From IMG/VR virus record IMGVR_UViG_2802429241_000009: a stretch of 39,485 nucleotides of DNA. One strand, written 5' to 3'. The notes beneath the pieces are model-generated. The model did not search any database and was not told the origin of the DNA. It worked only from the letters and a program-made list of their open reading frames with translations. Of the stretch, positions 13,496 to 16,216 are shown in pieces. The position numbers and the translations under genes were made by a program. How positions within the stretch are numbered: the stretch's first letter is position 1; the number at the start of each line of letters is the position of its first letter. The DNA comes from a virus. Lineage: Duplodnaviria; Heunggongvirae; Uroviricota; Caudoviricetes.

Positions 13496-13623
13496 TCCGC
13501 TGGAGGGGATAATGACGAAGATATCCTCTGGCGAGGATAAAGCAAATCCAGTCTATGAGCTGGCTGTTTGTGACATGTCACGACATCAAAATGCATCGAA
13601 TTCGTATTTCATGATTCACAGCT

Positions 13624-13648
13624 TAAAAAAATGCCCGGCGAACCGGGC
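13624..13648 (-). terminator. Intrinsic terminator on the minus strand downstream of the tRNA gene
   Basis: Minus-strand hairpin GCCCGG-TTCG-CCGGGC followed by ATTTTTTT. Confidence 0.65.
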
Positions 13649-13811
13649 GAACTGGAAGCGATGAGTTATGCCTTCCGTGGCTGTACGGGTTTACAGCATG
13701 AAGTCATCGCAATGGCGTCCTGCTGTAAAAAGGGTGGTGATAGTCCTTCAAGGGAAACCATCACCGCCAAGCACCTGGAACTTCTGGCATCACGGTCCTT
13801 AGGCGTGATTC

Positions 13812-13888
13812 TGGCGTGGCATGCAGGATTCGAACCTGCGACCAACCGCTTAGAAGGCGGTTGCTCTGTCCGACTGAGCTAATGCCAC
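13812..13888 (-). tRNA. tRNA-Arg (anticodon UCU), phage-borne
   Basis: 77 nt with full cloverleaf: 7-bp acceptor GTGGCAT/ATGCCAC, D-stem GCTC/GAGC, anticodon stem ACCGC/GCGGT with loop CTTCTAA, T-arm GCAGG-TTCGAAT-CCTGC, encoded CCA; close to E. coli argU as recalled. Confidence 0.85.
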
Positions 13889-14210
13889 AACGCTGAGAGC
13901 ACTTAGCCTGTTAAGGCACCACACTTTGTTGCGGCTCCATAAATGCTCTCATCGTTGTACCCTCGTCTCTTCCGAGGCGTCACACCGAATCGCCAGGATG
14001 GTGAATCCCCGTGCGCGGAATAAAACCGCTCGACTTGCACATTCCGGCTACCTGGTTCGTTTGCCCGAGCAAGGGAGGGTGCCCCTTAAACGTATCCAGA
14101 CCGCTATCGTCGCATGTGCCATACGCCGTACTGCTCAAAATAAAAGCTCACTCCACCTGTTCAATTTAACGACAAGCCAGTCAGGTTAGTAACCGGAATG
14201 AACTTTTTGG

Positions 14211-14225
14211 TTACCTTAAAGGTAA
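14211..14225. promoter_or_regulatory. Operator-like palindrome TTACC-N5-GGTAA upstream of the portal-proximal genes
   Basis: Exact; in the noncoding region between the tRNA and the structural genes. Confidence 0.5.
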
Positions 14226-14315
14226 TAATTCGTGCGTTAAATGTCAACCATCTACGATAAATAAATCATATGTGGTTAAATTGGTAATAATTTAATTGCG
14301 TACGGAGTCATTGAT

Positions 14316-14522
14316 ATGTGCATGGGTAGCTCACCATCAGTGCCTGCAACACCAGAAGTTCAGGCAGCACCACAGGAGCAGGATGCCGCCGTTGTTGATG
14401 CCCGCGACGAAGAAACACGTCGCCGTCGCGCTGCTGCTGGTCGTAGTTCTACGCTGCTTACCGGTTCTCAGGGCGACACATCAACCGCTAATACCAGCGG
14501 TAAAACGCTGCTTGGTCAGTAA
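14316..14522 (+). CDS. Hypothetical small protein (68 aa) upstream of portal
   Basis: GGAG SD; shares a 12-bp initiation-region repeat with the portal gene; Ala/Pro/Arg-rich. Confidence 0.35.
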   Translation: MCMGSSPSVPATPEVQAAPQEQDAAVVDARDEETRRRRAAAGRSSTLLTGSQGDTSTANTSGKTLLGQ

Positions 14523-14536
14523 CCGGAGTCATTGAA

Positions 14537-16216
14537 ATGGCGGAAACAACTAAAGAGCGATTGAACAAACAGTTCGCACAACTTGAAAGCGAGCGTCAGT
14601 CGTTCGAGCCGCACTGGCGCGAGTTGAGTGATTACATCAACCCGCGTGGTTCCCGCTTTCTGACTTCTGAGGTCAACCGTAACGATAGACGCAATACACG
14701 AATTATTGATTCGACCGGGACTATGGCGGCGCGCACTCTCGCCAGCGGCATGATGTCAGGCATCACAAGCCCCGCGCGTCCGTGGTTTCGCCTGGCTACG
14801 CCAGATCCTGAAATGATGGATTATGGCCCTGTTAAGTTGTGGCTTGAGGCGGTGCAGAACCGCATGAACGATATGTTCAATAAGTCGAATCTCTACCAGT
14901 CTCTTCCGCAGTTATACGGAAGCCTCGGCACATACAGCACTGGTGCAATGGCGGTACTGGAGGATGACGAGGACATCATTCGCACAATGCCATTCCCTAT
15001 AGGCAGTTACTACCTGGCTAACTCACCTCGTGGCAGTGTGGACACCTGTTTTCGCAAGTTCTCTATGACTGTTCGTCAGCTTGTTCAGGAGTTCGGGCTA
15101 AATAACGTCAGCGAATCCGTAAAAAGCATGTGGGAAAGCGGCACCTACGAGAAGTGGATTGAGGTGATGCATTCGGTTTACCCGAACATTGACCGCGATA
15201 CATCGAAGCTGGATAGCAAGAACAAGCCATTCAAATCGGTTTATTACGAGGTTGGCGGCGATAACGACAAGTTGTTGCGTGAGTCCGGATTCGATGAGTT
15301 TCCAATTATGGCTCCGCGCTGGGAAGTTAACGGCGAAGATGTTTATGGATCATCATGCCCGGGTATGCTGGCGCTTGGACCTGTTAAGGCATTGCAGCTT
15401 CTCCAGAAGCGTAAGTCGCAGTTGATTGATAAAGCCACCAATCCGCCGATGGTTGCTCCGACTTCCCTCAAGAATCAGCGCGCATCCCTTCTTCCTGGCG
15501 ACATCACGTATATCGATCAGATTACTGGTCAGGATGGTTTCAGGCCTGCTTATCTGGTTAACCCCAGTACAGCAGATCTGGTAGCAGACATTCAGGACAC
15601 TCGCCAAATCATTAACAGCGCCTACTTTGTCGATCTGTTCATGATGTTGCACAACATCAATACCCGCTCGATGCCTGTTGAAGCAGTGATCGAAATGAAA
15701 GAAGAAAAACTTCTAATGTTGGGGCCGGTTCTGGAGCGTCTGAACGACGAATGTCTTAATCCTCTCATTGACCGCGCTTTCTCGATGATGGTGCGTAAAA
15801 ACATGCTGCCGCCACCGCCTGACGCGATGGAAGGCATGCCCCTGAAGGTCGAATACATTTCCGTCATGGCTCAGGCGCAGAAGTCTATCGGCCTGTCCAG
15901 TCTGGCGTCCACGGTTAACTTCATTGGTCAACTTGCGCAAGCGAAACCAGAAGCTCTCGACAAACTCAACGTTGATCAGGCGATCGATGCATTCGCTGAT
16001 ATGTCCGGAGTGTCTCCAACCGTCATTGTTCCGCAGGAACAGGTTGAGCAGGCTCGCCAGCAACGGGCACAGCAGCAACAGCAGCAACAAATGATGGCGA
16101 TGGGGATGGCGGCGGCACAGGGTGCCAAGACGCTAAGCGAAGCTAAAACTTCGGAGCCGAGTGTTTTGTCAGCCATGGCGAATGCAGTTAGTGGTCATGG
16201 TGGGCAATCACAATGA
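14537..16216 (+). CDS. Portal (head-to-tail connector) protein, T7 gp8-like
   Basis: 559 aa; Gln/Ala/Met-rich C-terminus resembles the T7 portal C-terminus as recalled; position after terminase and before scaffold and capsid. Confidence 0.75.
   Translation: MAETTKERLNKQFAQLESERQSFEPHWRELSDYINPRGSRFLTSEVNRNDRRNTRIIDSTGTMAARTLASGMMSGITSPARPWFRLATPDPEMMDYGPVKLWLEAVQNRMNDMFNKSNLYQSLPQLYGSLGTYSTGAMAVLEDDEDIIRTMPFPIGSYYLANSPRGSVDTCFRKFSMTVRQLVQEFGLNNVSESVKSMWESGTYEKWIEVMHSVYPNIDRDTSKLDSKNKPFKSVYYEVGGDNDKLLRESGFDEFPIMAPRWEVNGEDVYGSSCPGMLALGPVKALQLLQKRKSQLIDKATNPPMVAPTSLKNQRASLLPGDITYIDQITGQDGFRPAYLVNPSTADLVADIQDTRQIINSAYFVDLFMMLHNINTRSMPVEAVIEMKEEKLLMLGPVLERLNDECLNPLIDRAFSMMVRKNMLPPPPDAMEGMPLKVEYISVMAQAQKSIGLSSLASTVNFIGQLAQAKPEALDKLNVDQAIDAFADMSGVSPTVIVPQEQVEQARQQRAQQQQQQQMMAMGMAAAQGAKTLSEAKTSEPSVLSAMANAVSGHGGQSQ

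Follow-up and report, generated by a model that had tools for sequence, protein, structure and literature searches.

Matched initiation regions of a small podophage gene and the adjacent portal gene: a clade-specific feature probably acquired by local copying

The 12-mer CGGAGTCATTGA occurs as two exact copies, offset by 221 nt on the plus strand of the window (the whole stretch of 39,485 nucleotides of viral DNA analyzed here), one just before a 68-aa gene, referred to below as gp3, and the other just before the portal gene (Table 1). These are probably two ordinary Shine-Dalgarno (SD) initiation regions serving neighboring genes in the late (head) operon of a podophage of the phiV10/epsilon15 type, present here as a prophage, and their extended identity is best explained as a secondary, clade-specific feature that arose by copying. 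The phylogenetic pattern points to such an event, in which the 14 nt preceding gp3 would have replaced the 14-nt gp3-portal spacer, by overwriting or conversion, in the common ancestor of the phiV10 and Tyrion lineages. It probably ran through template switching or conversion over a short stretch, with priming on the CGGAG and ATG common to both sites, and copy 2 would since have been drifting near the neutral rate outside its SD. Under this scheme, the repeat would have neither created gp3 nor maintained it.

Table 1. Features of the gp3-portal region (positions in the window)
Feature	Position	Strand	Details
Conserved leader, TTAAATTGGTAATAATTTAATTGCGT	14276..14301	+	Directly 5' of the first initiation site
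Repeat copy 1, CGGAGTCATTGA	14303..14314	+	SD GGAG 14304-14307, spacer 14308-14315, ATG 14316-14318; putatively the older copy
gp3, 68 aa, homolog of epsilon15 gp3 and phiV10 p06 (phrog_831)	14316..14522	+	phrog_831 E = 2.4e-36; includes TAA stop 14520-14522
gp3-portal spacer, 14 nt between gp3 stop and portal start	14523..14536	+	Holds copy 2 (14524-14535), SD GGAG 14525-14528; putatively the derived copy
Portal (head-to-tail connector), T7 gp8 type, 559 aa	14537..16216	+	Start ATG 14537-14539; PF12236 E = 2.7e-187, residues 7-496; phrog_332 E = 1.7e-253

Both copies lie where the initial annotation had placed them, with the start codons it had named: copy 1 is followed by T and the gp3 ATG, and copy 2 by A and the portal ATG. 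The two sites share the predicted SD geometry GGAG-N8-ATG, and by this spacing, together with the matches of the genes they precede to phrog_831 and PF12236, both can be classed as canonical SD initiation regions, each copy supplying an SD and a start codon as had been proposed, first for the 68-aa ORF and then for the portal. The two ORFs also proved to be genuine genes, as the upstream one is conserved, matches phrog_831 and is under purifying selection, and the downstream one is a portal gene by its PF12236 match, whose beginning at residue 7 supports the assigned ATG as its start. Ribosomes would bind the first GGAG, start at the gp3 ATG and stop at its TAA. Since this stop codon ends two bases before the second GGAG, portal translation may then begin either de novo from that GGAG or through re-initiation by the terminating ribosomes, which would amount to translational coupling. 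At its other end, the portal gene overlaps a gp5-like gene by 4 nt (16213-16216).

The register of the CGGAGTCATTGA pair, and not the recurrence of a 12-mer, is its unusual aspect. Recurring 12-mers are common in the window (119 distinct ones), and with up to one mismatch allowed on both strands CGGAGTCATTGA still has two copies, compared to a mean of 0.18 in shuffled sequences, of which 1 in 100 reaches two. Among the 1,431 pairs of called genes, none matches upstream in register over a longer stretch than gp3/portal (12 nt); the next matches are of 9 and 8 nt, with none of 10 or 11; the 9- and 8-nt runs arise because SD cores are common to genes. No third copy was found in the phage, and no antisense or complementary copy on either strand. 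The shared motif could in principle be an operator through which a trans-acting translational regulator (a RegA-like protein or a small RNA) controls both genes, and the overlap of the 12-mer with both SDs is the sole observation in favor of this reading. We regard it as exceedingly improbable, as the motif has two copies only, with no complementary sequence and no conserved structure, and is missing from the portal site of sister clades with the same gene set. RNA structure at the sites was not significant (z = 0.26 and -0.11) and Rfam searches returned no family except tRNA; RNA-level explanations were rejected on the lack of a significant fold, of an Rfam family at the sites and of an antisense copy of the motif.

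The leader directly upstream of the first site has 0 differences in 26 positions between the window and Tyrion-clade phages, against a divergence of 0.55 at 4-fold degenerate sites (P ~ 1e-9), and it is near-identical also in epsilon15 and SPN1S. It probably belongs to the promoter or the 5' UTR of the late operon; a consensus scan detected no sigma-70-like promoter.

The protein encoded by gp3 matches phrog_831 over its full length (residues 1-68 against profile positions 3-70 of 70), and the same profile is matched by 71 of the 71 diverse members of alignment A2. It has the same sequence as phiV10 p06 (100% identity) and shares 88% identity with epsilon15 gp3, and dN/dS values of 0.012-0.22 indicate strong purifying selection. 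The homologs are annotated as hypothetical proteins in the phiV10, epsilon15, Tyrion, and SPN1S records, and the family comprises approximately 1,520 clusters at 50% identity. M1-C2 is invariant in alignments A1 and A2, which also share the conserved blocks QAAPQEQD, RRRRAAAGR-ST-LTG, and KTLLGQ, while residues R36, T46, T49, G53, K63, L65, L66, and G67 are conserved at 90% or more; across 143 family representatives, 117 begin with MC. The window protein has the family trait of a Met-Cys N-terminus combined with a C-terminal half made up of a basic helix, STILTG, and KTLLG. AlphaFold2 predicted one helix (residues 24-43) with the rest as coil (pTM 0.32). No Pfam family matched the close members, and a profile search of the PDB gave nothing significant, the sole phage chain being 9vvp_S Gp17 (E = 6.5), which is a gp6.7 homolog. 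Searches with tblastn using two distant family members against deposited phages gave no matches, and in the literature we found nothing on the function of epsilon15 gp3 or phiV10 p06 and no virion proteomic or structural data on gp3. A bacterial lipoprotein was considered and rejected, as the window protein lacks a signal peptide and has its Cys at residue 2; a hydrophobic extension before the Cys occurs in only about 7 of the 143 representatives. A longer overlapping ORF with a TTG start (14296-14535, 79 aa) contains stops in 8 of the 10 relatives compared and is therefore not a gene.

The gene gp3 lies directly 5' of a PF12236 portal gene in the window (14-nt gap), in epsilon15, phiV10, Tyrion, and SPN1S, and in 56 haplotypes, and the ORF downstream of gp3 is likewise PF12236 at four distant loci (L235, L236, L239, and L241). 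At an Arsenophonus locus (L089), gp3 is intact and no downstream portal ORF could be called. Judged from this synteny and from the similarity of its N-terminus to that of T7 gp6.7 described below, the most likely role of gp3 is that of a small, largely unstructured protein of the virion or its assembly, acting together with the portal.

A first IMG/VR scan returned near-identical loci only, and a scan of genome contigs with degenerate patterns returned at least seven loci. The meaningful sample is the 56 distinct site-pair haplotypes, since locus counts are redundant (some IMG/VR contigs stand under two locus ids). The gene is present without the repeat in epsilon15, SPN1S, Klebsiella, Enterobacter, Citrobacter, Kluyvera, Superficieibacter, Morganella, and Proteus, as well as in distant metagenomic IMG/VR phages, and therefore the repeat did not create gp3. 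The gp3-portal gap is 14 nt in most Enterobacterales lineages, and its sequence is variable (taggcagag, cgcgcagag, acctgagag, and others; TAGGCAGAG in the epsilon15 type). A portal site resembling the gp3 site, with the spacer tcattg(a/t)(a/c), occurs in the phiV10+Tyrion clade only. On the other side of the gene, gcggagtcattgaa precedes gp3 at loci L107, L208, and L210, whose portal site is unrelated, and forms related to copy 1 precede gp3 in L204, L217, and epsilon15. Because the gp3-type site is found in clades with an unrelated portal site, the comparison identifies the gp3 site as the older copy and the portal site as the derived one.

The initial annotation had suggested that a local duplication created or preserved the small gene, and had proposed a comparison with relatives. 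Local copying does best explain the extended identity, and the small ORF is widely conserved, but gp3 is far older than the repeat, the matched pair is confined to the phiV10+Tyrion clade, and we found no evidence that the repeat preserved the gene. Loss of the ORF with retention of the repeat was not encountered, as the ORF is intact in every readable locus. A stronger form of the duplication reading holds that a duplication or cassette insertion placed the gene between two portal initiation sites, either at the origin of gp3 or by loss and re-acquisition in the phiV10/Tyrion ancestor. The direct repeats do flank exactly one gene-length unit of 221 nt and end at both starts, as an insertion or duplication at a gene boundary would leave them. 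With regard to how the gene originated, however, this reading is refuted by the presence of gp3 without the repeat in all outgroups, since the gene is much older than the repeat. The re-acquisition form is countered by the gp3 of the clade, which falls, at 85-100% identity, within the diversity that the group has inherited vertically, and by the searches for rearrangements: 533 of 5,426 E. coli genomes carry the gp3-portal region, the full 221-nt unit is present in all of the best 40 genome matches, and neither IMG/VR nor the 5,426 genomes yielded a gp3-less relative, a hybrid junction, or a junction of repeat-mediated deletion or duplication. No paralogous content was found between the repeats either, and the reading as a whole is highly improbable.

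The rapid turnover of portal spacers, of which there are more than 10 distinct types (about 15), raises another alternative, namely that a fast-evolving portal spacer drifted by chance or compositional convergence to the gp3 spacer in one lineage. The 8-9-nt in-register runs between unrelated genes of the window would fit such drift, as would a partial resemblance to the gp3-type site elsewhere (GGAGCGATTGCAG in L094). Yet a match of 7-8 spacer positions plus a flanking base in register has, by rough estimate, a probability of ~1e-4 per pair and roughly 0.01 over the sampled lineages, and the distribution of run lengths drops steeply, leaving nothing at 10 or 11 nt. We consider convergence very unlikely.

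The later history of the two sites was compared between clades. The copy 1 site has 1 difference in 14 positions from the Tyrion clade (P ~ 2e-4), and the 14-nt spacer holding copy 2 has 3-5 differences in 14 (P = 0.01-0.13, which is marginal). Natural variants that break the match do so on one side only, altering copy 2 with copy 1 unchanged (L016, L022, L103, L104, L110, and L113), and both sites of the epsilon15 clade show neutral drift outside the SD. Position -3 is A in both copies in the phiV10 clade and T in both in the Tyrion clade, with L110 as an exception. This shared change hints at ongoing homogenization or shared selection, although it concerns one informative site (rough estimate p ~ 0.07). 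Within each clade the two sites still agree over 12-13 nt even though 4-fold sites differ at 0.55 between the clades, and this retention may somewhat exceed simple neutral decay (rough estimate p ~ 0.07). Taken together, the evidence for active upkeep of the identity between the sites is weak.

Such upkeep would be expected if the identity were functional, with matched sites kept by selection, repeated conversion, or both for equal translation of gp3 and the portal and hence 1:1 assembly (e.g., 12 gp3 on a 12-mer portal). The co-change at -3 (A/A in phiV10, T/T in Tyrion) and the persistence of the match in both diverged clades speak for this reading, as does the family-wide position of gp3 directly 5' of the portal gene. 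The concerted change is nevertheless a single site, the conservation of copy 2 is marginal and its variants are one-sided, and initiation rates also depend on the downstream coding sequence, which differs between gp3 and the portal gene. All other clades of this phage group with the same two genes have unrelated sites, so that matching is not required. We find a functional identity unlikely on this evidence and on the comparison with T7 gp6.7 below, and prefer a copying event between two ordinary initiation regions.

The repeat itself is an ordinary, minor feature of one clade in which two normal ribosome-binding sites match, and it illustrates that a tidy duplication of a start region is not necessarily a sign of gene birth. 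The by-product of the analysis is more useful, as gp3 represents a very large uncharacterized family with an invariant Met-Cys start, encoded beside T7-type portal genes. Its product is a plausible candidate for a small virion protein associated with the portal or core, both in epsilon15-like podophages and in many others.

The closest known counterparts are epsilon15 gp3, phiV10 p06, Tyrion gp04, and SPN1S_0005 (phrog_831), which share the same 207-nt ORF, 14-nt gap, and place before the portal and do not differ from the window at the gene level. The Tyrion record already annotates both ribosome-binding sites, and the annotation tables of phiV10, epsilon15, Tyrion, and SPN1S contain no feature marking the extended site identity, which is itself absent from epsilon15 and SPN1S. 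Replication template switching between quasi-repeats that lie close together gives rise to short templated patch mutations or gene conversion. The present case resembles such events in that a tract of ~14 nt bounded by the microhomologies CGGAG and ATG appears to have been replaced from 221 nt upstream with the donor unchanged; the present case differs in being drawn from comparison between phages, with no intermediate or recurrent event observed. The region also resembles translationally coupled late genes of phages in its short, conserved 14-nt gap and in the downstream SD 2 nt after the gp3 stop, but coupling needs no site identity, and other clades of this phage group show none.

Two small T7 proteins were compared with gp3. 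One was gp7.3 (phrog_1320), which its position and a basic A/G-rich motif had suggested as a homolog; homology was rejected by hhalign, with probabilities of 0.4% (A1) and 0.2% (A2). The other, gp6.7 (PF17570; phrog_1391), is similarly small (88 aa, and 68 aa for gp3) and mostly unstructured, and each is encoded among the structural genes of a phage whose portal is of the PF12236 family. Both proteins start with an invariant Met-Cys and are Ser/Pro/Lys-rich, then Pro-rich and acidic (MCMGSSPSVPATPEVQAAPQEQD in gp3 and MCFSPKIKTPK..AVEPAPLTQE in gp6.7); the window gp3 begins MCMGSSPS, and some family members begin MCFSSPKIP or MCVFSKPKI..APEPAP. Their C-terminal halves, however, are unrelated (RRRRAAAGR-STLLTG-KTLLGQ in gp3 and SGRKSLKVE...IRKSAFGGKK in gp6.7), gene 6.7 of T7 does not lie next to gene 8, and presence in the virion as a core/ejected protein, a trait of gp6.7, is putative for gp3. 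At the profile level, phrog_1391 is matched by 1 of the 71 A2 members (E = 3.4e-5), and a gp6.7 HMM scores at least 10 bits in 3 of 263 gp3 family members and in 0 of 2,630 shuffles, a modest enrichment. PF17570 has sub-threshold matches in 3 of the 71 A2 members (best E = 0.041) and no match in the window protein or the A1 members. An hhalign comparison of gp3 (A2) with gp6.7 (A3) gave a probability of 20.7% over 4 columns, MCFS only. Homology of gp3 to gp6.7 was not demonstrated, as single-sequence and profile-profile tests were not significant beyond MCFS, and only a functional analogy of the N-terminus was retained.

This comparison bears on a functional identity of the two initiation sites from both sides. 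Twelve copies of loop I of T7 gp6.7 (residues 2-15) surround the portal barrel (PMC11784390). The gp3 N-terminus is of a corresponding MC-x-S-PK type, and a few family members score against gp6.7 models, although the homology tests fail. In its fullest form, which we regard as quite unlikely, gp3 would be the functional counterpart of gp6.7, with about 12 disordered peptides bearing an N-terminal Cys clasping the portal barrel to the internal core, and the phiV10/Tyrion sites would be kept identical by recurrent conversion under selection for a 1:1 ratio of gp3 to portal. If true, a gp6.7-like gp3 with matched sites would provide a natural example of stoichiometry set by the copying of a ribosome-binding site.

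The 12-mer CGGAGTCATTGA occurs twice on the plus strand at a spacing of 221 nt, and its coordinates confirm the initial annotation, which had placed one copy with a following ATG before a 68-aa ORF and the other before the portal gene. In both copies, GGAG lies 8 nt ahead of the ATG of a real gene, which supports their proposed role as ribosome-binding sites. With up to one mismatch on either strand, the window contains these two copies only (shuffle mean 0.18). Because 119 distinct 12-mers recur within the 39.5-kb window, recurrence alone is unremarkable and register is the relevant test. The adjacent pair formed by the 68-aa ORF (hereafter gp3) and the portal gene shares 12 nt in register upstream, more than any other of the 1,431 pairs of called genes; the next matches, of 9 and 8 nt, derive from shared Shine-Dalgarno (SD) cores. 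The repeat is thus real and unlikely to reflect pure chance, and it sits in the tail of the run-length distribution rather than being a different order of thing.

Features of the leader, gp3 and portal region (window coordinates), with the order of the surrounding genes
Feature	Coordinates	Strand	Details
Terminase small subunit			Gene order 1; PF03592
Terminase large subunit			Gene order 2
tRNA-Arg(UCU)	13812-13888	minus	Gene order 3, in an 820-nt gap
Leader TTAAATTGGTAATAATTTAATTGCGT	14276-14301		26 nt upstream of the first initiation site; identical in the window and the Tyrion clade
79-aa TTG ORF	14296-14535	plus	Other frame; covers all of gp3
Copy 1 of the 12-mer	14303-14314	plus	Followed by T-ATG
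gp3, 68 codons	ATG 14316, TAA 14520-14522	plus	Gene order 4; opened by the ATG after copy 1
Copy 2 of the 12-mer	14524-14535	plus	Followed by A-ATG
Portal, 559 codons	ATG 14537	plus	Gene order 5; PF12236, E=2.7e-187; opened by the ATG after copy 2
Portal C-terminal tail	16030-16216		Residues ~498-559
Portal stop/Bbp19-like start	16213-16216		4 nt shared
Bbp19-like protein			Gene order 6; PF25181
Scaffold/protease-like protein			Gene order 7
Major capsid protein			Gene order 8; PF20911

Sequence comparisons identify gp3 as a real and old gene. Along its entire length, the protein matches phrog_831 (E=2.4e-36). Homologues are present in prophages throughout the Enterobacterales, and an exhaustive profile search (E<=1e-3) recovered 1,520 clusters at 50% identity. 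A Met-Cys start is found in 117 of the best 143 representatives of these clusters; in the alignments M1 and C2 are invariant, and conservation extends to the blocks QAAPQEQD, RRRRAAAGR-ST-LTG and KTLLGQ. Compared with Tyrion, gp3 of the window has 31 synonymous differences against 2 nonsynonymous ones (dN/dS 0.012; 0.05-0.22 in other comparisons). The 207-nt ORF and the 14-nt gap before the portal gene are the same in phiV10, epsilon15, Tyrion and SPN1S, and in distant IMG/VR phages gp3 likewise lies immediately upstream of a PF12236 portal gene, with gaps of -4, +2, +6 and 228 nt. Public annotations already include the gene, listed as a hypothetical protein in phiV10 (p06), epsilon15 (gp3), Tyrion (gp04) and SPN1S, and its ribosome-binding sites, both of which are marked in the Tyrion record. 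A naive longest-ORF caller picks the 79-aa TTG ORF over gp3; this ORF is spurious, as stops break it in 8 of the 10 relatives examined.

Both initiation regions were taken from the fetched loci, which include some contigs twice; the distinct site-pair haplotypes number 56. The sites before gp3 and the portal gene are, respectively, acggagtcattgat and ccggagtcattgaa in the phiV10 clade, acggagtcattgtt and acggagtcattgtc in the Tyrion clade, acggagctattgct and acggagtaggcagag in epsilon15/SPN1S, and gcggagtcattgaa and agtaagggaccgtc in the clade of loci L107, L208 and L210, the last clade with a 9-nt gap and a different portal N-terminus. Two further loci, L204 and L217, have degraded forms of copy 1 before gp3 and unrelated sequence before the portal gene. 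In the remaining clades (Enterobacter, Klebsiella, Citrobacter, Kluyvera, Superficieibacter, Pantoea-like, Morganella and Proteus), the portal site has only the SD in common with copy 1 and the spacer is highly variable (e.g., taggcagag, cgcgcagag, acctgagag, atctggcag and cgattgcag). Among the 56 haplotypes, copy 2 resembles copy 1 only in the combined phiV10 and Tyrion clade, which has the portal N-terminus MAETTKERLNKQF; in Tyrion, the full 14-nt intergenic spacer differs from the 14 nt before gp3 at its last base only. The best explanation of the extended identity is a secondary event, restricted to this clade, that copied the gp3 initiation region into the gp3-portal spacer. In the simplest reading, a single event in the phiV10 and Tyrion ancestor would have overwritten this spacer with the gp3 site, over a tract bounded by CGGAG and ATG, which were already common to both sites. 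Since gp3 is far older than such an event and is present in clades without the repeat, the repeat cannot have created the gene, contrary to one suggestion of the initial annotation; its other suggestion, that the duplication preserves gp3, is likewise unsupported.

Fourfold degenerate sites, which differ at 0.55 between the window and Tyrion-clade phages, served as a neutral yardstick. Against this rate, the leader (-40 to -15 upstream of gp3) has 0/26 differences (P~1e-9), copy 1 has 1/14 (P~2e-4), and copy 2 has 3-5/14 (P 0.01-0.13, largely from the SD). In epsilon15-clade phages, drift outside the SD proceeds at the neutral rate at both sites. Natural variants alter copy 2 without a matching change in copy 1, including C>T in locus L022, GGGG for GGAG in L103 and L113, and further changes in L104 and L110. 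Position -3 is A in both copies in the phiV10 clade and T in both in the Tyrion clade, a hint of concerted change at one informative site (chance probability ~0.07, a rough estimate); the sole exception is L110, where copy 1 has a recombinant appearance. Given the one-sided variants and the single concerted site, active maintenance of the identity is possible but unproven. The one mildly novel reading is that identical sites would enforce 1:1 synthesis of a portal partner resembling T7 gp6.7. Another of the one-sided variants, T>G in copy 2 (tcatGgaaATG) of the IMG/VR locus 2563366988_000007 (L016), creates a new ATG in frame, 6 nt farther upstream; initiation there would extend the portal by Met-Glu.

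Direct repeats around one gene could mediate its precise deletion or tandem duplication. Deletion- and duplication-specific 38-mers, whose design keeps wild-type genomes from seeding a match, had zero matches in 5,426 E. coli genomes, the deletion junction was absent from IMG/VR, and the intact 221-nt unit was present in all of the top 40 E. coli genome matches. There was no third or complementary copy of the motif on either strand of the phage sequence, no significant RNA structure at either site (z = 0.26 and -0.11), and neither a sigma-70-like promoter nor an Rfam family other than tRNA in the region. The extended identity has no demonstrated function beyond ribosome binding. The leader, nearly unchanged in epsilon15 and SPN1S, probably serves as a regulatory element of the late operon or as a 5' UTR; farther upstream, the epsilon15 record annotates sites for IHF, repressor and RNase III.

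By sequence, the window is assigned to the phiV10/epsilon15-like podophages (Uetakevirus); across this region, megablast identity is 97% with phiV10 and with phiv142-3, and ~79% with epsilon15. Of 5,426 complete E. coli genomes, 533 carry the leader/gp3/portal junction (probe 14134-14715), mostly at 95-99% identity and almost without exception on the chromosome. The megablast also returned 65 Synechococcus phage records, probably through the tRNA-Arg (anticodon TCT), which lies between the terminase large subunit gene and gp3. PhiV10 and several relatives align to window 13496-13811 in two pieces and are ~350 nt longer there (1687-2058 in the phiV10 locus, L001); in phiV10, the extra DNA includes p03, a gene on the minus strand that resembles Sf6 gene 66 and is absent from the window and phiv142-3. 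The stretch between the terminase and head modules is an indel hotspot. The portal tail, past the Pfam domain, is low-complexity and Gln/Ala/Met-rich (..QQRAQQQQQQQMMAMGMAAAQGAK..), and the overlap of the portal stop with the Bbp19-like start suggests that these two genes are translationally coupled as well.

For gp3, the AlphaFold2 prediction from a 71-sequence alignment has a single helix (residues 24-43) with coil on both sides (pTM 0.32), which is not a globular fold, and searches of PDB and Pfam gave no significant match. About 7 of the 143 representatives have a hydrophobic, signal-peptide-like extension up to the conserved Cys (e.g., MKTFILNLLLIPMGC, MRRLILSLLLIPVGC, ..LLFPVFGC and ..AFITC); the likeness to a lipobox is a hint of possible Cys modification or membrane targeting in some members. 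The position and motifs of gp3 pointed to T7 gp7.3 and gp6.7 as candidates, whose T7 sequences were used for comparison. Homology to gp7.3 was ruled out (hhalign 0.2-0.4%), and membership in the gp6.7 family is unsupported, as the profile-profile alignment spans MCFS only (probability 20.7%). The gp6.7 PHROG was matched by 1 of 71 gp3 family members (E=3.4e-5) and PF17570 by 3 of 71, below threshold, while the gp6.7 HMM scored at least 10 bits in 3 of 263 members and in 0 of 2,630 MC-keeping shuffles. The likeness lies in the N-terminal ~30 residues, where MC and a Ser/Pro/Lys segment are followed by Pro-rich and acidic stretches. In T7, residues 2-15 of twelve gp6.7 copies wrap the portal barrel and tie it to the core (PMC11784390). 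From the gp6.7-like N-terminus and the invariant synteny with T7-type portals, our tentative working hypothesis, which we rate at clearly less than an even chance, is that gp3 may be a small, disordered protein that associates with the portal, as a virion component or in assembly.
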